Of a DNA stretch of 35,259 nt, positions 4,010-24,593 are shown piece by piece. Positions within the stretch are counted from its first letter, which is position 1. The number at the start of each line of letters is the position of its first letter. This DNA is from a virus. The position numbers were made by a program, and so were the translations under genes. The DNA lies in IMG/VR virus record IMGVR_UViG_3300045988_102484; one strand, written 5' to 3'. Under the pieces are notes generated by a model that did not search any database, was not told where the DNA came from, and saw only the letters and a list, made by a program, of their open reading frames with translations.

Positions 4010-4371
4010 GGCGGTCTGATTTCCTGCGGATAGCGAGGACGATGGCGGCGAACCTCAAGCAAGTCACGCCCAAGGACACCGGAAACCTTGCATATAATGC
4101 CACAAGGTATGAGCCACTGTCCGCCCAAGCGGTGCGGATATACGTAAACACGCGCGGAGATCACAAACCGGAAAGTCGGGACGGAATCGCTCCCTACTTC
4201 GTTTATGTCAACTATATGAAAAGCAGAAAACGAACGGACAGGAACGGAAACGTGGTAATAAAGCCAAACCGCAATTACCACTACTGGGACGACGCGATTG
4301 ACGCGCAAGTAAAAGAGATCGCCCGCATCGTCGGCGGGGATGTAAAGAAGGAGGGTGCGCCCGATGCTTGA
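4006..4371 (+). CDS. HK97 gp10-family neck/tail-completion protein
   Basis: ATG 4006 overlaps the upstream TGA (ATGA). The sequence ...VTPKDTGNLAYNATRYE... resembles the conserved DTGxLxxS motif of the gp10 family. Track ORF 3883..4371 is an N-extended version. Confidence 0.6.
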   Translation: MRRSDFLRIARTMAANLKQVTPKDTGNLAYNATRYEPLSAQAVRIYVNTRGDHKPESRDGIAPYFVYVNYMKSRKRTDRNGNVVIKPNRNYHYWDDAIDAQVKEIARIVGGDVKKEGAPDA

Positions 4372-5617
4372 TTTCGATAAGCTCAGAGAGCTATACGAGG
4401 TGGAGACTGGGTACACCCTTTTCCACGACTACGGAGAGCTGCAGGATGCCCAAAGATCACACCGCGAAAAGAATACGTTGGTGTATCCGGTTTTCGGCTT
4501 GTTCGCCACAACGCCCGCTCAGCTGACTCCGGTCAAAGGTGCTTTTGTTGGTACGGTAACCGCCAATATTACGGTGCTATGCCGCCCGGATAAGATTGAC
4601 GAGGTGCGCCAACATCTCAACGATACTGCTGTACGCCTTAACGGCACGACCGGAGAGATAGACGGGTACACGTACACGTACAACACAGAGACTTGCTATG
4701 TTGGCGAAGAGATCCGCGACAATATGATGGACTACACTGTCCCGGTTTACCAGTCCATAACGTACAGCATCGTTGAAGGCGGCGTGTCTTCCTACGCTGT
4801 CAAGGTGACCATTGACGGGTTCCCCGTTCCGTCTCTGTCTGTCACGCAGACACGGACTAAAACGTCCAACACATACGCCGGTGATGATATGGTCGGTCGC
4901 GTGGGCGTTCAGCTTGAAGCGTATGGAGTCGATATAACCGTTCCGTGGCTCACCGACGGGATTGTCGGTGTACTACGGAGAGAATGCGCAGAGGCGTCAC
5001 GTGGAATCGCTCACGCCGTCGAAATCGACAACAACGGGGAAATAACGGCGTACCTCATGATTTGCGGAAACATCGTGACTACCGCACAGCCTCCGCTCAA
5101 CGTAGGGCTTACGATATCCATGGTTGAGGCGGTGCCGGAGGCGTCCCGAATACCGTCATGGTGGGTGCCGTTCACGACGGAAAAGCGCGTCGTATCGGTG
5201 AACGCGGACGGGACACCGCGAACGGTGCTTTGGGGCGACGGAACCGGGTGCCATGTGGATGGGCTCTCGTGGCATCGGTATGCCGAAGAAGGCACGCACA
5301 CCGGCTATATCATCGCGCACATGGCAAGCCCGGATTATTTGCCGATGGCGGAAGGCGTGGATCTGACGGGGCGCAGACTGCGCATAGCCAAGGACAGCCC
5401 GACCAGCATTCTCACGGACGCTGACATGGTCAAGACCACGAACGGCGGCACAGAGATACAGGGCGGCAGGCTGTACATGGTTGACGGAACCGATATGATC
5501 CCGATTGACAGGGACATCGGATATTATGGCATAACGAATGGCACCAAGATAGAGGGCATCCTTTCCGGCAAGGTGACGCAGGCGGGAACGATATTGGAGT
5601 ACGATAGAAATGGCTGA
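4364..5617 (+). CDS. Tail protein (possible tail terminator/tube fusion); function unresolved
   Basis: AAGGAGGG lies 9 nt upstream of ATG 4364 (track start GTG 4355). 417 aa, beta-rich, in the position of the major tail protein. Confidence 0.5.
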   Translation: MLDFDKLRELYEVETGYTLFHDYGELQDAQRSHREKNTLVYPVFGLFATTPAQLTPVKGAFVGTVTANITVLCRPDKIDEVRQHLNDTAVRLNGTTGEIDGYTYTYNTETCYVGEEIRDNMMDYTVPVYQSITYSIVEGGVSSYAVKVTIDGFPVPSLSVTQTRTKTSNTYAGDDMVGRVGVQLEAYGVDITVPWLTDGIVGVLRRECAEASRGIAHAVEIDNNGEITAYLMICGNIVTTAQPPLNVGLTISMVEAVPEASRIPSWWVPFTTEKRVVSVNADGTPRTVLWGDGTGCHVDGLSWHRYAEEGTHTGYIIAHMASPDYLPMAEGVDLTGRRLRIAKDSPTSILTDADMVKTTNGGTEIQGGRLYMVDGTDMIPIDRDIGYYGITNGTKIEGILSGKVTQAGTILEYDRNG

Positions 5618-6107: not shown

Positions 6108-8956
6108 ACAAGGTGCGCGTATCAATAGGCGGGCAGGATTTCACCAAGTTTGCAACCTTGCCTTTAACTCTTCAAAATACGCTCAACGACACGCTGGACA
6201 GCGCTCAGGTGTCTTTGCACAATATGAAGAGGTCGGATTCGTTTGAGCCAATGACGGACGCAGTGCTTACCGTCAACGGCGTGGATACGGCGTATAAGGT
6301 AGCAGGCGACGAGGTTCTTGAGGTGTTCGGCGCTGGTCGGTTCTCGCATACGGTGACGTTGATCGAATACACCAAAGAGTCAGAGCGCTTGATCATGGAG
6401 GCGAAAGCCTTTACACGCCCGAAAATTCCGGACTATTCAGACGGTCAGACCGATGTGACGGTGTACCTGTGGGACGAGGGAACGGCTCCGGCTGATGGAG
6501 CGGATGGCGTGTTGGTAGGTTCGGACACATCGTCGGCGTTTGCGTCCCCAATCCTTAAAGGCGGAGGAAGTATTGCCATTCCGGCAATTTCGAGCATCCT
6601 GCAGAACACGCTGGAGACATACGGCGCCATTTCAACCGGTTACAAGCTAACCGTATACAGGAGTGATAGCCCGCAGAATGTCGGCAGTATGGAGCAAGTC
6701 GGCGAGATGGTTTACTCCGCCGAAGGCGCTCCGGCGGTCGCGCAGGCGTCCGTTGACCTTTCTGCGGTTGGATTCTACTATTTCCGCTATGAGTTCGCAG
6801 GAGGGAAAGAAGCCGCTGGCGGCGTTGAATATAGGTACTACAGCGCCATGTGGCAGGTGTCCGTGGTTTCCAATCCGGTGGCGCGCGATCCGTACACCGT
6901 TCGCAAGGTGGTGGACACGTTGCTGACCGTGTGCGAACCGCTTCGCGTCGGAGATGATCCACGGTACCGGCTGGAGGTTAAGGCTGGGCAGATGGCTGTA
7001 TTCTCGCAGGACGCGCCGGAGTTTCACTTTTCAAATTCCCGCACACTGTGGGAAAATTTGAGGGAAGTCGGGAAGTACATCCACGCCATACCGCGACTTG
7101 TTCCGCGCGTCGGATATACGGCGGTACAGTTTGACGAGCTGGGCGGGAATCAGAACGCGGACACAAGCAAGGGGCGGCGCGTATCCGGATCGGAGTCGTG
7201 GGACATTTCCGCGTATGCCGCCGGGTTGGAGACAATGGCGGCAAACCTTATAACGGCGGAGAATGACGCGCAGAGCACCATATGCGAGCCGTTCGGCAAG
7301 GGGTGGAAATCGCTCCGCACCGCGTCCGAGACTGCTCGGATTCAGGAGGGAACCGCGCACATCGAAACGGCGTACCCAATCGAGAGCGTGTCCCGTGTGC
7401 TTGTCTACTTCCAGTACGACGGCAAGGTGTATCAGGGGGACATCACGCCATACGTTTTTGAAAAAGCAGACTATGACCTCTTGTCAAGCTATACGGGGCA
7501 GTACCCAAATTCAAAGTGCTTTGCGCTGTACTACGCCAGGGGCAGTCAGAATATAAGCGGGCTATGGTACAAGCCAAACGACGAGGTAGCGTCAAGCCTG
7601 AACGCGTTCCAAAACTACGCAATCGCCAACATATGCACAGCGGCTACCGGGTGCTCGCTGAATATATTCAAACAACTGACATATCCGGACATATGCGTCC
7701 GGGTGGAATACATTCCGACCGTCACGGCGCGGATCCACGCCTACAAGCCGGACGCCAAGAGCGGCGGCGGCTTCCTGTCAGACGGACAAGCGGCGAACAG
7801 ACTCAGCGCCAAGGCACTGGGGGAGCACCTTCGGGGACAGCTTGCCATGTTGCCGAGCGCGTCTAAAAGCTGCGCGTGGCTGTTCAAGGATGCAGGAAGC
7901 ATTCCGGAGCCCGGCAAGCTGATTGACGGTCAGTACATATCCGTGATCACGGCTCGCATATACCCGGCTTATTGCGAAGCTCAAATTGACACAGTGAAGG
8001 GATACAACGAGCTGGGATCCTATGTGGAGCTTCCGACGGCTTTCCGCCAGTATGAAATACCGGACAGCCTTGAGCGGTTCACGGTTCTTGACGAGTTTGT
8101 ATACATTTCAGAAACTGCCGAAGCTGACGATTCTGACACTATATGCTCCGAACAACTGAAGGCGGCAGTGGCAAACGCTTTGGACGATGTAAGCGGAACG
8201 ATAGCGCGGCGCGTGTCGCTTGCTTCGGTCACGACAACAGACGATTCCGGCGTAACAATCGCGGCGGATGTGCTCTGTCCCGTCATGTCGCTGTCAGTCG
8301 GCAACGCGGTGTGCTTCTCTTTCCGAACGCAAGACAACTACAGCGCCGGGAACCAGTCGGCAAAGGGCGGAAAGCAATACCGCATGACGCAGGCGGTGCC
8401 GTACGGAGACAAGTACTACGGCACCGCAGAACGGCTCAAATTCGCCTTGTACGCGTCGGCAATGTCAACCGGGGTGATTGCTGGGGCGCACGCATTCCCA
8501 GCCACAGACGGCGCGTCTATCGCGCTCGGCGAAGCAATGGCGAGCACAGGCGCGAAGCCGCTCAAATGGTATAAGGATTCCGCCGAGGTCGGCAATGTGT
8601 CGTACCAGCTTCACGCCATGACAAGGGACGGATTCATTATCGGCGACATGATGATGGCGCACTGCTCTGCGGTTCGCGCCGTCGATGAAACCGAGTCGCC
8701 TGTGCTATACTACTATGGCGAGGAACTAAACCCGCTGACCGGGACGAACGGAACCGAGACAGTACTTGGCGCGGCTGACAGCGTGGGAGCCGTTTCGGAT
8801 GCGGACGGATGGCGCATCTCGTGCGTGACCGTGGAACCGCCGGAAGGATTCAAATCGTGGGCAATCAAACGCGGCGGCGACTTCCTGATCGGCAAGAATT
8901 CCGGTATTGTGCCCAAAAATATTTACTTAAACTTCAAGAGGAGGATCTCCAAATGA
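6104..8956 (+). CDS. Large tail / baseplate-hub protein
   Basis: 950-aa ORF with a GTG start overlapping the upstream TGA (GTGA). Position and size fit a tail-tip/Tal-like protein. No catalytic motif recognised by eye. Confidence 0.6.
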   Translation: MNKVRVSIGGQDFTKFATLPLTLQNTLNDTLDSAQVSLHNMKRSDSFEPMTDAVLTVNGVDTAYKVAGDEVLEVFGAGRFSHTVTLIEYTKESERLIMEAKAFTRPKIPDYSDGQTDVTVYLWDEGTAPADGADGVLVGSDTSSAFASPILKGGGSIAIPAISSILQNTLETYGAISTGYKLTVYRSDSPQNVGSMEQVGEMVYSAEGAPAVAQASVDLSAVGFYYFRYEFAGGKEAAGGVEYRYYSAMWQVSVVSNPVARDPYTVRKVVDTLLTVCEPLRVGDDPRYRLEVKAGQMAVFSQDAPEFHFSNSRTLWENLREVGKYIHAIPRLVPRVGYTAVQFDELGGNQNADTSKGRRVSGSESWDISAYAAGLETMAANLITAENDAQSTICEPFGKGWKSLRTASETARIQEGTAHIETAYPIESVSRVLVYFQYDGKVYQGDITPYVFEKADYDLLSSYTGQYPNSKCFALYYARGSQNISGLWYKPNDEVASSLNAFQNYAIANICTAATGCSLNIFKQLTYPDICVRVEYIPTVTARIHAYKPDAKSGGGFLSDGQAANRLSAKALGEHLRGQLAMLPSASKSCAWLFKDAGSIPEPGKLIDGQYISVITARIYPAYCEAQIDTVKGYNELGSYVELPTAFRQYEIPDSLERFTVLDEFVYISETAEADDSDTICSEQLKAAVANALDDVSGTIARRVSLASVTTTDDSGVTIAADVLCPVMSLSVGNAVCFSFRTQDNYSAGNQSAKGGKQYRMTQAVPYGDKYYGTAERLKFALYASAMSTGVIAGAHAFPATDGASIALGEAMASTGAKPLKWYKDSAEVGNVSYQLHAMTRDGFIIGDMMMAHCSAVRAVDETESPVLYYYGEELNPLTGTNGTETVLGAADSVGAVSDADGWRISCVTVEPPEGFKSWAIKRGGDFLIGKNSGIVPKNIYLNFKRRISK

Positions 8957-11019
8957 TAATCTACGCAAATGCGGACGGAGCGGTGCAGTCCTCGCCGTCT
9001 TTCCTCCCGTGCGGATCTGGAGGAATTCCGGTGCAAATCGTTGCGCCGTATTATGCCGGATGGACATGCTCGGTCGCGGTCACTCCTCCGTCCATGCTGA
9101 TCATTGATCCTGTCATTCTTACGCCATCGTTTGGCGGGGATCTCGGAGTATGGACGGGCAGGATGCCTCCCGGCACAGCGTCAAAACCGGGCGGCGGAAC
9201 GTATCAACTGCAGTTCGTCAGCGCAGACGGTCAGACGGTTGCAACGCTGTCCGGCACCTACTATGTGCAGCGCGGCGTGGTAGATGCGTACCCGGAGGAC
9301 ATGAGCGACCTGTCCTCGTACAGTCTGAAAACGCTGGCTGTTCTTCTGTCGCAGTTTGCGAACAAATACAACGAGTTTGCAACAAGGCTGGAAGATCTGG
9401 AAAACGGCTCCGGCTCTGTCCCGGACAACGTGGTGACTACTGACACATTGAAGGACGATTTACAAGGAATTGAGGGGTACGAGATGAAATTGATCAAGAA
9501 TGTGCTGTCATGGGGGATTTCCGGAAAAGTGCTGGCATCCGTGGTGCTGGCTGGCTTGTCAACTCTGACGTCGTGTTTTTGGACGCAGACAAACCGGGAC
9601 AATCTGGCGACAATGTTGGAGAGCGTTCCCATTGTTGCGGAAACGGAAACCGAGGCGGAAGCCATCAACACGGTTCGCGAATCGCTTACGACTGCATTGC
9701 GGACTACGGCGCCGGATGAGCCGGAATATGTGTACATCACGTTTGCGCTCGATGGCGTGACCGCCTCCATCGGAGGTCAGACCTACGAGAACGGCATTGC
9801 TCCCGTTGAGCTTGGGAAAAGCGTTTCGATAACGTTTACGCCCAAAGCTGACAATATTTCTGCAAGACCAGCCGACGGAGCCACGATTACAGCGCCGGCG
9901 GGCTATACCGGCGAGAACGGAGTAGCTGATGGCGTGTATGTAATCAAATTCGCCCCGACAGCCGACGCATCGGTATCGTGCGTGGGGGCTGTGATTAAGT
10001 CGCCCGAAGTTCTGGCGGGGATAGAAGTCAACCACTGCACGCTCCCCGCCAACGGAGCGACTGGCGTCTATGATGTGTACCTCGGCTCCGGCTCGCCTAT
10101 CGCCACTTACGGCGACATGCAGGGCTATATGAGCGTGCGGGCTATCTACAAGCGGGACGGAGTGCAGACGCGCACCGAGGAGCTGACCGACTACACAATC
10201 GCTAACGCCGAGGACTATATCAGCGTGTCCGGGCTGTATGCCATCGTCACGGTCAGATACGGCAAGTTTTCCGCGACGATCTTACTCAACGAAGTTTCCA
10301 AATACACCATGTCCGGCGCTGTATTCTACCTCGACGGAGAAGTGCTGGAAGGTAGCACCGTTTCGCTTCCGGTTGGAAAGACATTCAAAAGCCTTATATC
10401 TTCCGGTCGGCTGAAGGTGAAAACCATTTCTGATATGTTCGGCACGCGCTGGGCAAAGCGGGAATGGTCAGACATCTTTAAGTCAGAGGTAAACATTGCG
10501 GGAAAATATTCGGAAGTTGAAGCCGTCCAAAGCTATGATGGATATACGCCGTCCTGCCGGTTCTCTTTCGGAAATACTCTGACCACTGTCAATACTGCAA
10601 GCGCCACGTTTACGCTGAAACCAGTTGCGCCGGGTTCGACGGTTACGGTCACGCAAAGCGGTGACGGATTCAGAATCGAAGAGCTGAGCGGCGCGACTTC
10701 CGGAACCGTTGAAATATCGAACGGACTGCTGGAACTCGTCATAAAGGTGGCAAGCGGATACACCTCGTCCGGCGTGTTTACCGTGACCAAAAACGGAGAG
10801 ACGCTGACGGCTGGAACCGGATATCTCGTCACCGGCAACGATACAGACGGGTACGCGCTTTCCGTGTCCGGATGTGCTGACGGCGACAATGTGACGGTTC
10901 ATCTTTCGACCACTACGGCACAGGCTGACAATATCCGCTTTGAAAACGGAGTGCTGACCATCTTGGCGCTCGCCAACACACCGACGCAAACGGAAGACGG
11001 AATCCTGCATATTGTATAA
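8953..11019 (+). CDS. Tail fibre / receptor-binding protein with C-terminal Ig-like repeats
   Basis: ATG 8953 overlaps the upstream TGA (ATGA). 688 aa. Track ORF 8809..11019 is an N-extended version. Has a central coiled segment and a beta-rich C-terminus. Confidence 0.6.
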   Translation: MIIYANADGAVQSSPSFLPCGSGGIPVQIVAPYYAGWTCSVAVTPPSMLIIDPVILTPSFGGDLGVWTGRMPPGTASKPGGGTYQLQFVSADGQTVATLSGTYYVQRGVVDAYPEDMSDLSSYSLKTLAVLLSQFANKYNEFATRLEDLENGSGSVPDNVVTTDTLKDDLQGIEGYEMKLIKNVLSWGISGKVLASVVLAGLSTLTSCFWTQTNRDNLATMLESVPIVAETETEAEAINTVRESLTTALRTTAPDEPEYVYITFALDGVTASIGGQTYENGIAPVELGKSVSITFTPKADNISARPADGATITAPAGYTGENGVADGVYVIKFAPTADASVSCVGAVIKSPEVLAGIEVNHCTLPANGATGVYDVYLGSGSPIATYGDMQGYMSVRAIYKRDGVQTRTEELTDYTIANAEDYISVSGLYAIVTVRYGKFSATILLNEVSKYTMSGAVFYLDGEVLEGSTVSLPVGKTFKSLISSGRLKVKTISDMFGTRWAKREWSDIFKSEVNIAGKYSEVEAVQSYDGYTPSCRFSFGNTLTTVNTASATFTLKPVAPGSTVTVTQSGDGFRIEELSGATSGTVEISNGLLELVIKVASGYTSSGVFTVTKNGETLTAGTGYLVTGNDTDGYALSVSGCADGDNVTVHLSTTTAQADNIRFENGVLTILALANTPTQTEDGILHIV

Positions 11020-19923: not shown

Positions 19924-20367
19924 ATGCTATTGATTGGAATCAAAAACACGAACGCGCAGACCCTTATATCCGGCGAGAACATCAACCTCGGGGCTGTATA
20001 CCGCCGGTACTGCCGGCGCAACTCATGCGGAACTCCGTCGTTCTCCGCATCCGGCACCGATCTGACAATCAACGCCGCCGGGATCTACCACGTCACGGCG
20101 ACGATGGTATGCACCGCAACGGTTGCCGGAATTGTATCGGCAGAGCTTTTCGCCAACGGGGTGGCGATCCCGGGCGCGATATCATCCGAGACGATAACGA
20201 CAGCCGGTACAGAACAGCGGACGCTTGTGATCGACCAGTACGTATTGGTTGACAGGGCTTGCACGCTCGGAACAAACGCAATCCGACCGGTGTCCTTGTC
20301 GATCGTAAACGCGGGAGTCGGCGCAACGTACTCTGCGATTACGCTCAACGCAGAAAAAGTGGCATAA
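19924..20367 (+). CDS. BclA C-terminal-domain-like (C1q/TNF-like jelly roll) protein without collagen repeats
   Basis: AAGGAGGAAAGCC-ATG, 147 aa. The segments ..AAGIYHVTATMVCTATVAGIVSAELFANGVAIPGAISS.. and ..SAITLNAEKVA parallel my memory of the Bacillus anthracis BclA CTD (..TGFYKITVIANTATASVLGGLTIQVNGVPVPGTGSS.., ..ASIIIEKVA). Confidence 0.55.
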   Translation: MLLIGIKNTNAQTLISGENINLGAVYRRYCRRNSCGTPSFSASGTDLTINAAGIYHVTATMVCTATVAGIVSAELFANGVAIPGAISSETITTAGTEQRTLVIDQYVLVDRACTLGTNAIRPVSLSIVNAGVGATYSAITLNAEKVA

Positions 20368-20381
20368 AGGGGGCGAGCGAG

Positions 20382-20867
20382 GTGAACGAAGTCGCAAGAA
20401 GGATCCTCATGGAAAGGCATCGCCGCCGAAAAGAACACGAAGCCACAGAGCCGGAAGAGCGGCGCGTCACAGTGCACGCCGCGATTTCCGACGATAACGA
20501 GCCGATTCGTCAAAGCGAAGATCTGGAAAATGAAGATCTGACGGAAGACGAGATGCGAGAATGGGCGCGCAATTTGCGAAACGCTGACGGTTCGCACGGC
20601 GCGCGCTTTTCGCGGCGCGAGATTGAGCGTGCCGCCGATGATCTCGGCATCAAAAATACCGGATACTCCCTCGATGACTTGTGGATGGCGGCAAATATGT
20701 CGTATTCTGACTACTGCGGCGCCTTGCTTGAGGTTTGTCCCGGAAATCGAAGCGAGGAGACCGCGCTCTACACTAAAATCGGAGCCGCTTTCCTGGACGA
20801 CTCCGATGCCTCGGTGCGCGGCTCGGAAAAATTGATGCTATACTATCGGTGTATAGTCGATGAATAA
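20382..20867 (+). CDS. Hypothetical protein (acidic N-terminus; ..NADGSHGARFSRREIE.., ..WMAANMSYSDYCGAL..)
   Basis: In-frame GTG 20382 follows AGGGGG. Alternative start ATG 20409. Track ORF 20259 overlaps the upstream gene. Last gene before the terminator. Confidence 0.55.
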   Translation: MNEVARRILMERHRRRKEHEATEPEERRVTVHAAISDDNEPIRQSEDLENEDLTEDEMREWARNLRNADGSHGARFSRREIERAADDLGIKNTGYSLDDLWMAANMSYSDYCGALLEVCPGNRSEETALYTKIGAAFLDDSDASVRGSEKLMLYYRCIVDE

Positions 20868-20870
20868 GAA

Positions 20871-20891
20871 AGCGGAGGCAACGCCTCCGCT
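20871..20891. terminator. Hairpin between convergent genes (bidirectional terminator)
   Basis: AGCGGAGGC-AAC-GCCTCCGCT, a 9-bp perfect stem. T-rich on the minus-strand exit side and moderately T-rich on the plus side. Confidence 0.7.
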
Positions 20892-20924
20892 CTCTTCACT
20901 TGTTCTTTATTTGTTTTTTTTATT

Positions 20925-21170
20925 TTATTGGTTTTCCCATTTTTTGAATTCTATGATTATTTTTGTCACGTTTTCAAAGTCGATGTATCCGTTTTCGTCC
21001 GGTTCACCTTTTACTACTGCGTAGTATTTGATTTTTCTCTTTTCCTCTTTAGTTAGGTATTTTTCCCATTCCCATTTTGCTTCTTGGATTGCTTCTTCTT
21101 TTGTTTTGAACATTGTTTGGAATCGGTCTACATTTTCTTGGCGAATAATTGCGTAAGCTTCATTTTTCAT
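20925..21170 (-). CDS. Small Lys/Glu-rich hypothetical protein in a low-GC island (third gene of the operon)
   Basis: AGGAGG RBS then ATG at 21170 (internal to track ORF 20925..21233). 81 aa. My hand count gives about 33% G+C against GC-rich flanks. Confidence 0.6.
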   Translation of the reverse strand: MKNEAYAIIRQENVDRFQTMFKTKEEAIQEAKWEWEKYLTKEEKRKIKYYAVVKGEPDENGYIDFENVTKIIIEFKKWENQ

Positions 21171-21405
21171 CTTTTCTTTCCTCCTTTGAACGATCCGATG
21201 TTTTCTTTGTCCGCCTATCCCTGAGCGGCTCAACGCCGGGGACGGCGGCAGCGATCAGCTCGCCGACAAATAAATTTACTGTTTTTCCGGCTTCTTTCGC
21301 CGCGTCTTTTACTTTTTGCGCGTCAGATTTCCGCAAGCTGATGTTGAGCGGCGAGTAGTTTTCGCGCTTATAATCACGAGTGTAATCTTTCAAGTTGTAG
21401 CCCAT
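21160..21405 (-). CDS. Ribbon-helix-helix (CopG/Arc-like) DNA-binding protein, antitoxin-like
   Basis: 81 aa. NISLRKSDAQKVKDAAKEAGKTVNLFVGELI fits the RHH strand-helix-helix pattern, followed by a basic disordered tail. Overlaps the downstream gene by 11 nt. Confidence 0.55.
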   Translation of the reverse strand: MGYNLKDYTRDYKRENYSPLNISLRKSDAQKVKDAAKEAGKTVNLFVGELIAAAVPGVEPLRDRRTKKTSDRSKEERKDEK

Positions 21406-21477
21406 ATTATTCTTTTCTTGCCTTTCTGATGATGCTCATCCCTTTCTGCGGGGATTAGCCGCCCCGCTCGGCTATCA

Positions 21478-21780
21478 TCAAAAGTTGTGGATCTCGCCGT
21501 CTCGCCCGATGTATCTTTCGTGGCATAGCTTTGCCATTTCAAGACCGCTAAAAACGATTTGCATCGGGTGCAGTCCAGCTTCTTTTTTGCCGTTCGTGAA
21601 ATCCGCGTACTTTCTGCGCGTGCCGAAGTTATCATTTTTGACGATGATGTCGCCGCGCTCGTTTCCGAAGTTAACAACCACCGCGCGAACCTCCCGGTTG
21701 ACATTGAAGTGATTTTCGTCGATATCGAACACCTCCTTGTATATCTTGGTCGTCAATTCCGCTTTCGTTGCCTTTCCCAT
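21478..21780 (-). CDS. Hypothetical protein (first gene of the attP-proximal operon)
   Basis: GGAGGA lies 7 nt before ATG 21780 (track ORF starts at 21798). 100 aa, no motif recognised. Confidence 0.6.
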   Translation of the reverse strand: MGKATKAELTTKIYKEVFDIDENHFNVNREVRAVVVNFGNERGDIIVKNDNFGTRRKYADFTNGKKEAGLHPMQIVFSGLEMAKLCHERYIGRDGEIHNF

Positions 21781-21840
21781 TTTCCGTTCCTCCATCATTT
21801 ATTTGTTTTCGTTTTATGGGCTCCTTGCCCCTGTGGCTGT

Positions 21841-21869
21841 ATTATACCACAATTCGCGCGAATTGTCAA
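21841..21869 (-). promoter_or_regulatory. Consensus sigma-70-type promoter with an 18-bp palindromic operator
   Basis: The minus strand reads TTGACA (21869..21864), a 17-nt spacer, then TATAAT (21846..21841). The perfect palindrome ACAATTCGCGCGAATTGT (21849..21866) fills the spacer and overlaps the -35. Confidence 0.8.
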
Positions 21870-21894
21870 GGGGGTTTGAAAAATTTTTTTCAAA

Positions 21895-21920
21895 TTTTCG
21901 TTTCAATTTTTCGTTTCAAA
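21895..21920. repeat. Two tandem 13-bp units TTTTCGTTTCAA(T/A); candidate integrase arm-type sites
   Basis: CGTTTCAA at 21899..21906 and 21912..21919, in the same orientation as the copies at 22116 and 22128. Confidence 0.6.
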
Positions 21921-22012
21921 TAACGCGCAAAAAGCCAGTACAAACCGCGCGCAAACATGCGCGTTTGCTCTATTTTTTGAGCATAAAAAGCGCCGTGCAT
22001 CAACAGAAAAGT

Positions 22013-22041
22013 AAAAAAGCCTTGTTTTCACAAGGCTTTTT
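22013..22041. terminator. Bidirectional hairpin terminator next to the attP core
   Basis: A6-GCCTTG-TTTTCA-CAAGGC-T5. On the minus strand it directly follows the tRNA-like 3' end. Confidence 0.75.
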
Positions 22042-22044
22042 GTT

Positions 22045-22069
22045 TGGAGCGAGTAACGGGAATCGAACC
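22045..22069 (-). other. attP core: 3'-terminal ~25 nt of a tRNA (T-loop, acceptor strand, discriminator U, CCA)
   Basis: The minus strand reads GGTTCGATTCCCGTTACTCGCTCCA. Upstream sequence does not complete a cloverleaf. The integrase gene lies 63 bp away. Confidence 0.7.
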
Positions 22070-22115
22070 GTTTACTATGTGCGAAAATCCATTGTCGGAT
22101 ATATATTTTTTTCGG

Positions 22116-22135
22116 CGTTTCAAATTTCGTTTCAA
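22116..22135. repeat. Two further CGTTTCAA copies (12-bp spacing) overlapping the int stop codon
   Basis: CGTTTCAA at 22116..22123 and 22128..22135. Confidence 0.6.
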
Positions 22136-23199
22136 TTTTTGCTAAAAACTCCAGAAAAATAGGACTGCAGCTGATCCTGGACGCTGCTCTTTTTGGACGC
22201 CATGATGTGCCCGTAAACTTGGTCAATCATGTTCTCTGTCTCGTGCCCGACATAGTCCGCGATGTACTTCTTCGGCACGTTGAGCGACAGCATGACGGAT
22301 ATCAGATAATGTCGCAAGTCGTGGAAGCGGTACTGCCGGACGCCTGCACGTTTAATGACCCACCGCCAGCGCGACGTGATGTCCGCCGGGTTGATCGTGA
22401 TGCGGTCGCCCGGCTCCGCTCCGTTCGGCTTGGCGGCATTCAGCGCGTCCACGACCGCCGGGAACAGCTTGATGGTTCGCGTGCCGGCTCTCGTCTTGGT
22501 TGTCTTTGTGTGGTATTCATTGTCGTCTCCGAGTACCAGTGCCTGATGGATGCTGATGATGCCATCGTATAGATCTACATCGCGCCACGTGAGCGCGGCG
22601 ATCTCCGAACGACGCATACCACAGCAGGCGCCAAGTAAGACCGGGATTTCCATATCGGTGCCGGCGGCGGCTTGCATAATGCGCCGAATCTCCTGCTCTG
22701 TCGGTATCCTGACCGTGCTCCGCTCCTTCTGCGGCATTCGAATGTTGAAAGTCACGTCCGGCATCTCGTCAGCAAGAGACGCCGAAAAAAGCCCGTAGGC
22801 GTTGCGAACCGTTTTGGGCGCAACTCTGCGTGCCTCATCGTTTACGACGCTCTGGACGAGATTTTGCGACAGCCCCGACAGTTTAGCATCCAGAAGCTCC
22901 TGCAAATTGTTCCGGACTATGCCACGGTATGAGCGAATCGTAGCCGGGGACAGGACTGCGGCGCGGCGGTCTATATAGTCGTTCATCATGTCGCGGACGG
23001 TTCGTCCCTGCCCTGTCCGTGCCGCGCGCTTGTCTGCCTTGCGCGCGGCAAGCTCCAGCTGAACCTCGGCATAGGTGGCGCGCGTGATTGACTCGACGAT
23101 AGACTTACCGTCCGGATCCTTTCCGGCGTATATGCGCGCCGTATAGGAGCCGGACGGGAGTTGTTTGATTCTGGGTAGCCTTGTGTTGCGTCGCGTCAT
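22132..23199 (-). CDS. int: Tyrosine recombinase / phage integrase
   Basis: 355 aa. Has ..AALTWRDVDL.. (Arg), HDLRHYLIS (HxxR) and GHETENMIDQVYGH (His...Tyr), plus an N-terminal SAM-like arm/core-binding region. Adjacent to attP. Confidence 0.92.
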   Translation of the reverse strand: MTRRNTRLPRIKQLPSGSYTARIYAGKDPDGKSIVESITRATYAEVQLELAARKADKRAARTGQGRTVRDMMNDYIDRRAAVLSPATIRSYRGIVRNNLQELLDAKLSGLSQNLVQSVVNDEARRVAPKTVRNAYGLFSASLADEMPDVTFNIRMPQKERSTVRIPTEQEIRRIMQAAAGTDMEIPVLLGACCGMRRSEIAALTWRDVDLYDGIISIHQALVLGDDNEYHTKTTKTRAGTRTIKLFPAVVDALNAAKPNGAEPGDRITINPADITSRWRWVIKRAGVRQYRFHDLRHYLISVMLSLNVPKKYIADYVGHETENMIDQVYGHIMASKKSSVQDQLQSYFSGVFSKN

Positions 23200-23621
23200 C
23201 TCTTATCTATCACAATCTGGGTAACCTTCCCGTCCCGGCAATACACGGTAACGGTCAGAAGGTAGCCCTGCGAGGAAACGCGCCAATACGGGAATATACA
23301 GAGCGTTGAGGTCGGGTATCTGCGCGCGAACACATACGACACGGAGCCGTCCTCCAGTATGCTCTTTGCCGGAGAAAATCCGGCGGACTCAACAATCCTG
23401 ACCGCCGTTTCTTCTACGAGCCCGATCTGCAGGCACTTGGCGCTTTCTCGCAACTGGCGCACCTTGTCACGCTCCCGCGACTGCTTGCAGAACGCGACGA
23501 CAAAGCCGATCATCAGATAGAGCGCCAAAGCAATGCCTACGATAATCAGGGTGCGCTTGACGTCTACGTTCTTGGTGGCAGGTGCCACACCGTTCGACAC
23601 AATGAAAGATAAAAACCGCAT
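23196..23621 (-). CDS. Single-pass membrane protein co-transcribed with int (superinfection-exclusion candidate)
   Basis: AGGAGG then ATG 23621 (internal to track ORF 23196..23780). 141 aa. TM segment LIIVGIALALYLMIGFVVAF. ATGA overlap with the int start. Confidence 0.6.
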   Translation of the reverse strand: MRFLSFIVSNGVAPATKNVDVKRTLIIVGIALALYLMIGFVVAFCKQSRERDKVRQLRESAKCLQIGLVEETAVRIVESAGFSPAKSILEDGSVSYVFARRYPTSTLCIFPYWRVSSQGYLLTVTVYCRDGKVTQIVIDKR

Positions 23622-23639
23622 AGTATCCTCCTGAAGTAT

Positions 23640-23645
23640 ATTATA
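23640..23645 (-). promoter_or_regulatory. -10 box (TATAAT) of a probable promoter for the membrane-protein/int operon
   Basis: The minus strand reads TATAAT about 19 nt upstream of ATG 23621. The -35 is poor (CGGACG with a 16-nt spacer). Confidence 0.4.
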
Positions 23646-23734
23646 GTTGTTTTTCAAGGCGCGTCCGCCGTCGATTTTACCAAATATATCTTTACAATTT
23701 ATGCCAAAAGTCAATAGACGCGGACGGCGGCAGG

Positions 23735-23743
23735 TGTTATAAT
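23735..23743 (+). promoter_or_regulatory. Extended -10 promoter (TGTTATAAT) reading toward the repressor gene
   Basis: TGnTATAAT at 23735..23743. A weak -35, TAGACG, lies 17 nt upstream. Confidence 0.55.
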
Positions 23744-23773
23744 AAGACATGAAGAAAAGCAAGGAGGAAAAAA

Positions 23774-23953
23774 ATGACAAAATCGGAATTGCAAGAACGC
23801 CTGACCGCCATCATTCGCGCGAGCGACAAGCCCGAGCTTGTCGCCGCTCTCACTGTCCTTTCCGCTCGTACATACGTGCGATTGCTTCGACCGTCTGCAG
23901 GAAGTCCTCCCGCTTGTCCGCCGGGACACTGTCCGCCGCCTTCAGAACGCTGA
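23774..23953 (+). CDS. 59-codon ORF with strong RBS, convergent with and overlapping the repressor 3' end (small protein or antisense RNA)
   Basis: AAGGAGG lies 6 nt (AAAAAA) upstream of ATG 23774. Encodes MTKSELQERLTAIIRASDKPELVAALTVLSARTYV... Below the 60-aa track cut-off. The last ~35 codons are antisense to 23850..23953. Confidence 0.4.
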   Translation: MTKSELQERLTAIIRASDKPELVAALTVLSARTYVRLLRPSAGSPPACPPGHCPPPSER

Positions 23954-24194
23954 CCATATACGGCGGCATTTCGCCCTCTGCTTCGGCAGGGGGCTTTTTT
24001 TCGTCCCGCTCGGTCAATAGATCCGCAACCGATACGCCGAAATAATCCGCAATCTTGCGAACCGTTGAGTTTCGCGGGACAGTATTATCGCCCCATTCCG
24101 AGAAAACAGAGGAAGAGAAACCGAGGTCTGTCATAACCTTAGACGGAGATACGCCCTTGTCGGCGCAGATTTTGATGAAATTACTCTTAAACAT
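23850..24194 (-). CDS. XRE-family HTH repressor (CI-like)
   Basis: 114 aa. ..KGVSPSKVMTDLGFSSSVFSEWGDNTVPRNSTVRKIADYFGVSVADLL.. is a classic HTH_3 domain. Divergent from the early promoter. No SD precedes ATG 24194, so the transcript may be leaderless. Confidence 0.85.
   Translation of the reverse strand: MFKSNFIKICADKGVSPSKVMTDLGFSSSVFSEWGDNTVPRNSTVRKIADYFGVSVADLLTERDEKKPPAEAEGEMPPYMVSVLKAADSVPADKREDFLQTVEAIARMYERKGQ
23973..24001 (+). terminator. Rho-independent terminator on the + strand, embedded in the repressor coding region
   Basis: GCCCTCTGC-TTCG-GCAGGGGGC (9 bp including one G.U pair, TTCG loop) followed by T7 (23995..24001). Confidence 0.75.
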
Positions 24195-24236: not shown

Positions 24237-24288
24237 ACAAAACCGAGAAAAACCGAACAAGACTATTGACAAACCGAGAAAAACCGAG
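24237..24288 (+). promoter_or_regulatory. Operator-like direct repeats (two ACAAA(A)CCGAGAAAAACCGA units = four AACCGA half-sites)
   Basis: AACCGA at 24241, 24251, 24273 and 24283, with spacings of 10, 22 and 10 bp. The second unit forms the spacer of the early promoter. Confidence 0.65.
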
Positions 24289-24294
24289 TATAAT
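24266..24294 (+). promoter_or_regulatory. Early lytic promoter (perfect TTGACA-N17-TATAAT)
   Basis: TTGACA at 24266..24271, a 17-nt spacer, TATAAT at 24289..24294. Divergent from the repressor gene. Confidence 0.85.
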
Positions 24295-24423: not shown

Positions 24424-24593
24424 AACAAGCCACCCAAAAGACGACAGAAAAGACACAACCAAAACACACTTGCATTATAGCAGATTCGTGTCTTGCTGTC
24501 AATAGCCAAAATTCAAAAAAAGGAGTTGAAACTCGGAAAAATTGAACGGAAAGCCCCAAAATTTAAGCAAAAGAAGGAAAGGAGAAGCGAGGA

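Follow-up and report, generated by a model that had tools for sequence, protein, structure and literature searches.

What is the role of a compact three-gene operon that a temperate phage carries directly beside its attachment site, under a promoter that matches the consensus at every position? The question is raised by a 35,259-nt stretch of viral DNA (hereafter the window) from a temperate, siphovirus-like phage whose host is an uncultured Oscillospiraceae gut bacterium. Here genes A, B, and C, with a strong promoter ahead of them and a terminator behind, form a minus-strand cassette directly beside attP (Table 1). A preliminary description, made from the sequence of the window alone, took this cassette for a candidate tripartite toxin–antitoxin (TA) system or defence moron. 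Its three reading frames, including the overlap of B and C, hold as first drawn, and pN/pS values among relatives (A 0.11, B 0.12, and an elevated 0.54 for C) indicate that all three are real coding genes. We argue that the cassette is probably a modular accessory operon repressed by its own product B and not an obligate three-part system.

Table 1. Features of the cassette and its surroundings, in window coordinates
Feature	Position	Strand	Remarks
Convergent DUF7841 gene	20259..20867	+	
Cassette terminator hairpin	20868..20888	-	Minus-strand terminator prediction; kept in L007; abuts the DUF7841 stop codon
Gene C, 81 aa	20925..21170	-	Overlaps B by 11 nt; small, mostly acidic family; fast-evolving, very AT-rich
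Gene B, 81 aa	21160..21405	-	Basic, pI 9.65; putative Arc-like ribbon-helix-helix repressor; variable basic tail
Gene D 3′ remnant	21407..21440	-	34 nt; D is 56 aa in relatives; supplies the ATCATCA arm and the ribosome-binding region of B
GC-rich hairpin, GCGGGG-N8-CCCCGC	21448..21467	-	After A in all A-carrying relatives; remnant in L015, which lost A
Outer inverted repeat, TGATGAT/ATCATCA	21480..21474 and 21433..21427		Around GCGGGG/CCCCGC
Gene A, 100 aa	21478..21780	-	Variable cargo; large, highly conserved, unannotated family of mobile elements
Cassette promoter	21841..21869	-	TTGACA 21869..21864, 17-nt spacer, TATAAT 21846..21841; TG extended -10
Perfect 18-bp palindrome, ACAATTCGCGCGAATTGT	21849..21866	.	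9+9 inverted repeat; ACAATTC-GCGC-GAATTGT; putative operator for B
A/T-rich palindrome, TTTGAAAAA-NN-TTTTTCAAA	21875..21894	.	Just upstream of the -35
Two TTGAAACG direct repeats, attP P′ arm	21899..21919	-	30–50 nt upstream of the cassette -35; two further copies at 22116..22135
Phage-borne terminator	22014..22041	-	Directly after the attP core; predicted; invariant among relatives
attP core, GGTTCGATTCCCGTTACTCGCTCCA	22045..22069	-	Same sequence as the 3′ terminus of host tRNA-Gly(CCC)

An Insulated, Low-GC Cassette at the Future Prophage End

The cassette lies in the interval bounded by attP and the last of the late genes, which becomes a prophage end once the phage has integrated. In the integrated prophage of a relative (L014), a complete tRNA-Gly(CCC) (4254–4327) ends in GGTTCGATTCCCGTTACTCGCTCCA, phage DNA continues from there, and the cassette promoter follows ~175 nt downstream of the attP core; ARAGORN found no whole tRNA in the window. 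The motif TTGAAACG occurs five times in the window, with four copies flanking the attP core, and is conserved in relatives, a pattern suggesting that these repeats are likely arm-type sites bound by Int. As judged from sequence, the predicted terminator behind the core shields the cassette from transcripts of int and, after integration, from those of the tRNA gene. This terminator and the integration of L014 bear out the earlier view of the operon as separate from the CI/int unit and destined for a prophage end. At the other end, a minus-strand terminator is predicted where a shared bidirectional one had been proposed, and its use in both directions is plausible since the hairpin directly follows the stop codon of the convergent DUF7841 gene.

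Base composition also sets the cassette apart. Its GC content is 44% (33% in gene C) against 55% for the whole window, with a trough of 34–48% across the cassette between flanks of 55–60%. Together with a promoter and terminator that appear, at the level of sequence, independent of neighboring operons, and with presence/absence polymorphism among near-identical phages (below), this composition agrees with the moron reading, which we retain. The locus had no blastn match among GenBank phages, and an Rfam scan of 20700..22300 returned nothing near threshold.

Because the cassette adjoins attP and the arm-type repeats, B might instead be a recombination directionality factor that controls excision at the adjacent site, and the N-terminal segment of one A homologue (P0097) resembles an excisionase-type helix-turn-helix (HTH) by eye. 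However, that segment has no Pfam match, the palindrome lies within the promoter and not among the arm repeats, and derivatives without int and attP still have B. Excisionases are winged-helix or HTH proteins and are not known to be ribbon-helix-helix (RHH) proteins. We regard excision control as the least credible of the accounts considered here, with hardly any probability of being correct.

A Consensus Promoter with an Operator-Like Palindrome

The description of the promoter as textbook proved accurate. It matches the consensus at 12/12 positions and adds the TG of an extended -10, and perfect TTGACA-N17-TATAAT promoters occur three times in the window compared with none in 100 dinucleotide-preserving shuffles (chance expectation 0). 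The promoter is kept in 10 relatives; in L011 it has two weakening changes.

The perfect palindrome reported in this promoter is likewise real, reaching from the final 3 nt of the -35 across most of the spacer, with the centers of its two arms 11 bp apart. It is the sole match to its sequence in the window, even with three mismatches tolerated. Across 11 phages the 14 columns of its arms are invariant, compared with 31% variable columns in the neighboring intergenic sequence (P about 0.005, for arms that partly overlap the -35 and phages that are closely related), and 3/4 columns of its center vary (GCGC, GCGT, GCAC, or ACGC among relatives). By this pattern of conservation the palindrome behaves like an operator. 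An inverted repeat overlapping the operon promoter, as expected of operons that pair anti-CRISPR with anti-CRISPR-associated genes (acr-aca), is thus present, with a regulator whose binding is putative. The A/T-rich palindrome just upstream may be an UP-like element or part of the attP P′ arm.

Other controllers were considered for the palindrome. CI was dropped since the repeats of the CI/Cro region, of the AAACCGAGAAAAACCGA type, bear no relation to the cassette palindrome, which is itself single-copy in the window. Sites for host regulators (LexA/Cheo box, cre, Rex) were rejected by eye, the half-sites being misfits in orientation or sequence.

Gene B Is the Constant Element and Resembles Arc

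B is the only gene found in every variant of the cassette (15/15 related contigs). The preliminary description called its product an RHH protein. B has no Pfam RHH match and, like A and C, no NCBIfam match and no PADLOC family at E ≤ 1. Its best sequence match in the PDB is the RHH regulator AvtR (E = 0.056), and tblastn against phages gave weak matches only, to AvtR-like regulators of archaeal lipothrixviruses. Among PHROGs it matched phrog_11622 (“transcriptional regulator,” E = 0.008) and phrog_13890, both weak or without assigned function. B aligns in register with Arc/Mnt (LNISL/FNLRW; GKTVN/GRSVN); the hhalign score against Arc is 17.6, whereas 200 shuffled B sequences averaged 9.3 and reached at most 14.9, although hhalign probabilities are low. 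It is also in register with the Pfam-supported RHH protein of another lineage, L043 (E = 0.033). These weak but consistent signals suggest that B may be Arc-like, and the RHH assignment has weak support from its AvtR and Arc resemblances and none from Pfam.

An Arc-like product of a strong promoter brings to mind immI of phage P22, a Pant-arc-ant unit with Mnt, in which Arc, an RHH protein from the same transcript, turns a near-consensus promoter down. The cassette could by extension control lysis and lysogeny, with the strong promoter driving a small antirepressor (A or C) until B shuts the operon off. The register of B with Arc, the likeness of the promoter and its overlapping operator to Pant, and the occurrence of the A domain in P0107 and P0097 as a fusion with HTH DNA-binding domains all fit such a switch. 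However, we find no Mnt-like second repressor to silence an antirepressor in lysogens and, in Pfam and PHROG searches, no homology to Ant, Tum, or other antirepressors. Furthermore, A is found in elements with unrelated repressors, and cargo is gained and lost among phages whose CI proteins are near-identical and whose operator repeats are the same. An immI-like switch is thus very unlikely.

Cargo Is Exchanged Around a Constant Putative Regulator

Among the 15 closely related phage contigs we found five layouts: A-B-C, A-D-B-C, D-B-C, C′-A-B-C, and C′-A-B, where C′ is a paralogue with 38% identity to C that lies upstream of A in L007 and L031. The first four share the cassette promoter, and the fifth is a deletion derivative that lacks it. 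Depending on the relative, the slot from the promoter to B is filled by A, D, A and D, or C′ and A; A is missing from L011, L014, and L015, which have D instead. The trio of A, B, and C is therefore not fixed in related phages. A constant small DNA-binding regulator beside variable small cargo, the composition of acr-aca operons, is what the layouts display, with B constant and A, D, and C′ varying upstream of it.

The deletion derivatives (L007 type) lack the CI C-terminus, int, attP, the promoter, and the palindrome but retain C′-A-B. Retention of these genes without int and attP fits a use in lytic growth. Since B was kept when promoter and palindrome were lost, it may have another role or may not yet have decayed.

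Exchange of cargo also accounts for the 72-nt spacer between A and B, which had been presented as a structured element, a hairpin nested in an outer inverted repeat. Both repeats are present, and the predicted RNA fold (-23.9 kcal/mol, z = -2.0) is modestly better than that of shuffled sequences. However, 34 nt of the spacer are a remnant of D, matching the tail of its reading frame (...EMSIIRKARKE*) in L012, L014, L015, and L017, and comparison with relatives shows that the outer repeat is partly accidental. The inner, GC-rich hairpin is not an intrinsic terminator, as no T-run follows it. A role for the spacer as regulatory RNA was dropped, since a hairpin that travels with A and the remnant of a deleted D explain it better.

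The layouts bear on the TA proposal as well. In a type II system, B would be an RHH antitoxin and autorepressor with C as the toxin or, in reverse order, with A as the toxin, the third gene being accessory. Several features suit this arrangement: B is followed by a small gene with a strong Shine-Dalgarno sequence and an 11-nt overlap, the operator palindrome lies inside the promoter, B and C are adjacent in 12/15 contigs, TacA1 antitoxins are the best-scoring family for the RHH protein beside A in L043, and L001–L006 have a PemK toxin gene near A, a few genes away and not adjacent to it. Conversely, partners in an obligate adjacent pair should not come apart, and here C is deleted with B kept in L007–L009, L031 has two C-type genes but one B, and A without B and B without A both occur. 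Nor does B have the conserved toxin-neutralizing segment of an antitoxin. It is near-invariant to about residue 64 and then continues in four different tails, frame-shifted in L015 and P0122 (C being intact) and truncated in L007. With a trio that is not conserved, a variable B tail, and cargo without resemblance to toxins (below), the tripartite TA reading, a type II pair with an accessory third gene, is poorly supported and improbable, if less so than an immI-like switch.

A and C Are Uncharacterized Families without a Detected Toxin Fold

Gene A was described as having no recognizable motif, and searches of Pfam, PHROG, PADLOC, and NCBIfam agree, as do tblastn searches of GenBank phages and PLSDB plasmids and a search of the PDB with a profile of the A family, none of which gave a match. 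Yet the family is large, with at least 441 clusters at E ≤ 1e-3 and a range from Clostridia to Olsenella. Homologues of A share 67–91% identity among the 120 matches listed, and an alignment of 54 homologues has 21 invariant columns. In many elements A occurs without B or C, and in others it sits inside long early operons.

C belongs to a different kind of family, with 59 representative homologues of median charge -7.4. Its only library match is phrog_1672, a function-unknown family; Pfam, PADLOC, and NCBIfam gave none, and neither did tblastn against GenBank phages. AlphaFold2 models of A (pLDDT 87) and C (pLDDT 91.7, in the order beta-beta-alpha-alpha-beta-beta) are confident. In Foldseek searches the A model found nothing better than E = 0.3 in the PDB and BFVD, and neither model found anything below E = 0.9 in the PDB. 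Classical toxin folds are thus among those that the A and C models do not match, and no toxin family was detected for either protein in Pfam, PADLOC, or NCBIfam; the mostly acidic character of C-family proteins also speaks against a TA pair.

The same proteins bear on lysogenic conversion, in which the cargo would protect the lysogen, as a new prophage defence or superinfection exclusion system under the control of B. Position at a prophage end, a promoter of its own unrelated to CI operators, the low-GC island, and content that varies by presence and absence would all be expected of such a system. Variable lysogen-expressed genes near the integration/immunity region of mycobacteriophages reportedly confer defence (Dedrick et al. 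in 2017), which counts in its favor. However, no cargo protein matched any PADLOC family of known or candidate defence proteins at E ≤ 1, and A and C are small and soluble, without membrane segment, nuclease, ATPase, or sensor domain. Furthermore, derivatives unable to lysogenize retain C′-A-B, and A also occurs within the long early operons of other elements. Lysogenic conversion seems to us a doubtful explanation, albeit the least improbable of the four alternatives.

The Same Design Recurs in Other Lineages

Other temperate lineages, with different sequences, show the same design of int, attP, and a strong promoter with a palindrome in its spacer, followed by A, alone or with further small genes. 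In two of them the final gene is small and RHH or RHH-like, and in one of these two the assignment has Pfam support. The order in L043 is int, attP, TTGACA-N17-TACAAT with an 11+11 palindrome, A, and an RHH gene, whose best Pfam match is TacA1 (E = 6e-8), with RHH_1 and Arc also matched. In L021 and L049 the promoter is at or near consensus and comes with a palindrome of another sequence; variable small genes follow, A among them, and then a last small gene that is constant. Kinship of this last gene with B as an RHH gene was considered and set aside, the resemblance being by eye only and without statistical support. In L019 a promoter inverted repeat accompanies an HTH–A fusion, and in L033 a 59-aa HTH_3 gene follows a gene of the C family.

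A Proposed Self-Limiting Burst of Exchangeable Cargo

How might an accessory operon under its own repressor work? Once the DNA enters the cell, the housekeeping RNA polymerase of the host would fire the maximal-strength promoter. B, an Arc-like RHH protein on our reading, would then be made and, as it accumulates, would bind the palindrome over the -35 and spacer, holding expression of the operon low and steady in newly infected cells and lysogens alike. The hairpin terminator behind the tRNA-derived attP core would block upstream transcription, and the second terminator would end the operon. A, D, C, and C′ would in this scheme be exchangeable cargo and not partners of one machine.

In its logic the cassette agrees with acr-aca anti-defence operons, which likewise combine a strong promoter and an inverted-repeat operator with small cargo that varies and a small repressor that does not. 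Counter-defence or host takeover would be the most likely role of the cargo. That it is anti-defence is a tentative suggestion, which we consider possible but fall well short of asserting. A fuller version, more tentative still, is that A represents a new, widespread, and conserved family of small effectors, without a fold match in the PDB or BFVD, in phages of gut Clostridia and some Coriobacteriia, expressed in bursts from promoters autorepressed by Aca-like RHH proteins and disabling a conserved host defence or process, while C represents a further family, one of fast-evolving acidic inhibitors, in operons of the same type.

Several observations count against the main reading. B lacks a Pfam RHH match and persists in L007-type phages without the promoter and palindrome, and no cargo protein matched a known defence family. 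The placement of C, downstream of the regulator and overlapping it, is more typical of a TA pair than of acr-aca, and A, by its identities and pN/pS given above, is unusually conserved for an anti-defence protein.

The cassette marks a fast-exchanging cargo slot in phages of uncultured Oscillospiraceae, and this slot carries two uncharacterized families, one large and without a fold match (A), the other small, mostly acidic, and fast-evolving (C). If the cargo is truly counter-defence or defence, it would be a set of candidates from an almost unexplored host group. Recurrence of a consensus promoter, a spacer palindrome, and a small RHH or HTH gene in several lineages also suggests a possible search handle for new gut-phage cargo, as aca genes have been for anti-CRISPRs.

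Comparison with Known Systems

The architecture itself, a self-repressed accessory operon at a prophage end, is already familiar. Temperate siphophages of Firmicutes have moron regions that separate attP from the lysis or late genes, such as the immune-evasion cluster of Staphylococcus aureus, the prophage toxins of Streptococcus pyogenes, and the acrIIA locus of Listeria. The cassette shares with these regions its genomic position, its own promoter and terminator, an aberrant base composition, and mosaic content; it differs in that its cargo families are uncharacterized and its host is an uncultured Oscillospiraceae bacterium. With P22 immI it shares a near-consensus promoter and an Arc-type RHH gene, putative here, on the same transcript. 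However, arc is the first gene in P22 and B is not first here, neither Mnt nor a homologue of Ant was found, and the cargo is variable.

Type II TA systems with RHH antitoxins (RelBE, ParDE, CcdAB, and TacAT; PMC2812701, PMC3920265) also have an RHH gene followed by an overlapping small gene and a palindromic operator in a strong promoter, and autoregulation is their expected behavior. In contrast to these systems, the cassette has one or two extra genes upstream of the RHH gene, no detected toxin family or toxin fold, and an antitoxin-like tail that is not conserved, and its partner genes are gained, lost, and duplicated independently.

Differences from acr-aca operons (bioRxiv 10.64898/2026.07.27.740549; PMC9410906; PMC8633003) are that no cargo protein here is a known Acr, that an extra gene, C, follows and overlaps the regulator, and that typical Acr proteins are far less conserved than A. 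Likenesses are an inverted repeat that lies over the core elements of a strong promoter, a small DNA-binding gene that stays constant and recurs beside small variable cargo, often unannotated or acidic, and a place in the accessory regions of phages and prophages. For a regulator of the RHH type in anti-defence operons, Aca14 provides a precedent (bioRxiv 10.64898/2026.07.27.740549).

A probable autorepressed, modular accessory operon at the prophage end

The minus-strand cassette beside attP is most likely an autorepressed, modular accessory operon, in which B, a putative ribbon-helix-helix (RHH) protein, would serve as the constant regulator, while A, C, and the further small genes D and C′ of relatives would be interchangeable cargo; this is the simplest account of the sequence comparisons. 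Every element named in the preliminary description (promoter, palindrome, three genes, and spacer) was recovered in place. The cassette promoter, with a TG extended −10, fits the consensus at 12/12 positions and is one of three perfect consensus promoters in the window, vs. none in 100 shuffles. GC content falls to 34–48% over the whole cassette region (33% in gene C), vs. 55–60% on either side.

Features of the cassette and its surroundings in the window
Feature	Coordinates	Strand	Remark
Whole region	~24200 to 20860	minus	CI-like gene, int, attP, cassette, terminator, in this order
CI-like HTH gene	24194..23850	minus
Small predicted membrane protein gene		minus	between CI-like gene and int
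Tyrosine integrase (int)	23199..22132	minus
attP core	22069..22045	minus	25-nt segment resembling a tRNA 3′ end
Terminator hairpin	22041..22014	minus	after attP core
A/T-rich stretch		minus	TTGAAACG repeats; between that terminator and cassette promoter
Cassette promoter	21869..21841	minus	TTGACA-N17-TATAAT
Gene A	21780..21478	minus	100 aa
A–B spacer		minus	72 nt, between genes A and B
Gene B	21405..21160	minus	81 aa
Gene C	21170..20925	minus	81 aa; 11-nt overlap with B
Terminator hairpin	20888..20868		ends cassette; abuts stop codon of convergent DUF7841 gene

The attP-proximal location, also part of the preliminary description, is borne out by an integrated relative. Relatives reached through C homologues are phage contigs of ~34 kb with a gene order identical to that of the window. 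Contig L014 is an integrated prophage: its bacterial genes, which NCBI names Oscillospiraceae or Eubacteriales and which include that for ribosomal protein S20, lead up to an intact tRNA-Gly(CCC) gene with the phage sequence GGTTCGATTCCCGTTACTCGCTCCA as its 3′ end. Beyond this point, L014 and the window are collinear through terminator, repeats, promoter, and cassette. The TTGAAACG repeats lie two per side of the attP core, matching expectation for arm-type integrase sites. In the integrated state the cassette is at the prophage end, directly downstream of a host tRNA gene and a phage-supplied terminator. The attP P′ arm also contains, between terminator and cassette promoter, a 36-aa ORF (MHGAFYAQKIEQTRMFARGLYWLFARYLKRKIETKI, 21890–22000, minus strand) that is open in nearly all relatives (L013 has no listed copy, and those of L015 and L031 are longer). 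This ORF lacks an obvious ribosome-binding site, shows many nonsynonymous changes, and overlaps the palindrome CGCGCATGTTTGCGCGCG (21946–21963); an attP feature at the DNA level is a likelier explanation than a gene.

A candidate operator in the cassette promoter

Several lines of evidence point to the promoter palindrome as a putative operator for a cassette-encoded repressor. ACAATTCGCGCGAATTGT is a perfect palindrome that occurs once in the window, even with three mismatches permitted. Across 11 phages, 14/14 arm columns are invariant, vs. 31% variable among background intergenic columns from attP core to promoter (P ~0.005, or ~0.016 without the three −35 positions), and 3/4 columns of the center vary, the pattern expected if two contacted half-sites flank an uncontacted center. 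The same design, in different sequences, recurs in further temperate phages with an A-family gene beside int and attP. In L043, a perfect 11+11 palindrome occupies the spacer and −10 of a TTGACA-N17-TACAAT promoter, followed by A and then a protein matching Pfam TacA1, RHH_1, and Arc. In L021 and L049, the promoter is consensus or near-consensus and has a palindrome of another sequence, and differing small-gene sets that include A precede a constant last small gene; L019 combines an inverted repeat in the promoter with an HTH–A fusion. Cognate autoregulation would predict such pairing of different palindromes with different small regulators in one architecture. The probable CI operators of the window phage are repeats unrelated to ACAATTCGCGCGAATTGT, which makes CI no obvious candidate for the ligand.

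B is basic (pI 9.65) and has no RHH match in Pfam. Its best PDB sequence match is the RHH regulator AvtR (E = 0.056), and it weakly matches a PHROG annotated as transcriptional regulator. It runs in register with Arc through beta-strand, helix A, G-x-S/T turn, and helix B, with an hhalign score of 17.6 vs. a mean of 9.3 and maximum of 14.9 for shuffles of B (n = 200).

Cassette variants and the toxin–antitoxin reading

Behind a shared promoter, five layouts occur among 15 contigs of the phage clade: A-B-C (window, L013, L016, L018, L029, and L030, which shows A-B up to the contig end), A-D-B-C (L012, L017), D-B-C (L011, L014, L015), C′-A-B-C (L031), and C′-A-B (L007–L009, which have lost that promoter). 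B is the sole gene common to all. D is a 56-aa protein for which no homologues of known function were found, and C′ is a paralogue of C (38% identical). By DNA alignment with relatives, the A–B spacer is composite, consisting of a GC-rich hairpin and 34 nt left from the 3′ end of a deleted D. By chance, this D remnant contributes ATCATCA, one arm of the outer inverted repeat. The hairpin is always 3′ of A, and part of it persists in L015 despite the loss of A there. All three genes are genuinely protein-coding, with pN/pS values of 0.11 (A), 0.12 (B), and 0.54 (C).

These variants bear on the original proposal of a tripartite toxin–antitoxin system or defense moron. The moron with an operator-controlled promoter is supported, whereas the tripartite system is not: the A-B-C trio is not conserved, confident models of A and C reveal no detectable toxin family or fold, and C-type genes undergo duplication and deletion independently of B. 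The tail of B, the part with which an RHH antitoxin would be expected to hold its toxin, is likewise not conserved, with four different tails among relatives after about residue 64, and is frame-shifted in relatives keeping C. A B–C pair with a novel toxin, favored chiefly by the 11-nt gene overlap and B–C adjacency in 12/15 contigs, we consider quite improbable.

The L007 type arose by three deletions bounded by microhomology. The first, at GATT, eliminated int along with half of attP and the C-terminal portion of CI, whose codon ~50 is now fused to the attP core; the others removed the cassette promoter with its palindrome, and gene C. The remaining genes are predicted to be transcribed from the CI promoter. 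Such derivatives (L007–L009 and L032; L007:3600–3830 and 4640–4700) come from several metagenomes and presumably represent virulent mutants that circulate in the gut.

Cargo families

The A family numbers at least 441 homologous clusters, mostly of 96 aa, and occurs in Ruminococcus bromii, Lachnospiraceae, other Clostridia, and Olsenella. Identity to the window protein is 67–91% among the 120 homologues listed; 21 columns are invariant among the 54 homologues aligned. A has no match in Pfam, PHROG, NCBIfam, or PADLOC and was not found in 50,697 GenBank phage records or PLSDB plasmids; Foldseek matched its confident AlphaFold2 model (pLDDT 87, pTM 0.69) to nothing in PDB or BFVD. The C family comprises ~59 representative clusters of 70–80 aa proteins (median net charge −7.4); the sole library match of C is phrog_1672, a PHROG of unknown function, and its very confident model (pLDDT 91.7) yielded no PDB match.

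Three proteins, each from a single contig, join these domains to others: P0107 (L019:6001–6474) fuses an N-terminal XRE-type HTH to A, P0155 fuses the same kind of HTH to C, and in P0097 an excisionase-like segment without a Pfam match precedes A. Whether these are real fusions or lost stop codons, they point to small DNA-binding genes as frequent immediate upstream neighbors of A/C cargo genes. In R. bromii-type elements L001–L006, a PemK-family toxin gene with its own consensus promoter lies 2–3 kb downstream of A (around 8100–9900) and is not its neighbor.

Neighboring switch, accessory slot, and late genes

The other two perfect (12/12) promoters, at 24266–24294 (plus) and 24474–24502 (minus, ~280 nt upstream of the CI start), face each other across ~180 nt in the interval that separates the CI-like gene from the early genes. 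The pair is conserved in relatives and resembles the convergent, face-to-face lysis–lysogeny switch of coliphages 186 and P2; the rightward promoter is embedded in AAACCGAGAAAAACCGA-type direct repeats, probably the CI operators. The predicted membrane protein gene between CI and int (23196–23780, minus) is annotated with a TTG start (194 aa), the true start probably being a later ATG. Close relatives have genes of different sizes at this position (118, 141, and 194 aa), which suggests that it is another variable accessory slot, perhaps one for superinfection exclusion.

Convergent with the cassette, the last two late-operon genes carry only domain-of-unknown-function annotation. The first (19924–20367, plus; 147 aa) has a subthreshold BclA C-terminal-like domain (E = 1.3e-5, 25.5 bits vs. 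a 38-bit cutoff); the second, the DUF7841 gene (20259–20867, plus), is listed as 202 aa from a TTG start and called as 161 aa in relatives. No lysin or holin was recognized beside the cassette in the window's clade, unlike in L019, L021, and L053.

Possible role and relation to known systems

For the cargo, several observations point tentatively to counter-defense or host takeover: the genes of the slot precede a constant regulator, C-family proteins are mostly acidic and evolve fast, a C-family gene is followed elsewhere by a small HTH gene, A occurs within long early operons of other elements, and C′-A-B is kept in deletion derivatives unable to lysogenize. The very strong conservation of A, however, is atypical of anti-CRISPR proteins. 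That the cargo instead protects the lysogen, through a new defense or exclusion function, is the second-best reading, though an unlikely one; an excision factor or an antirepressor circuit of the immI kind is less likely still. The cassette architecture is of a known kind, and the cargo families are uncharacterized, one being very widespread, which makes the locus a lead of moderate interest for functional screens in gut-phage biology. The autorepressed operon proposed here would share its organization with acr–aca anti-defense operons, among whose regulators Aca14, itself an RHH protein, binds an inverted repeat over the promoter (preprint, bioRxiv 10.64898/2026.07.27.740549).
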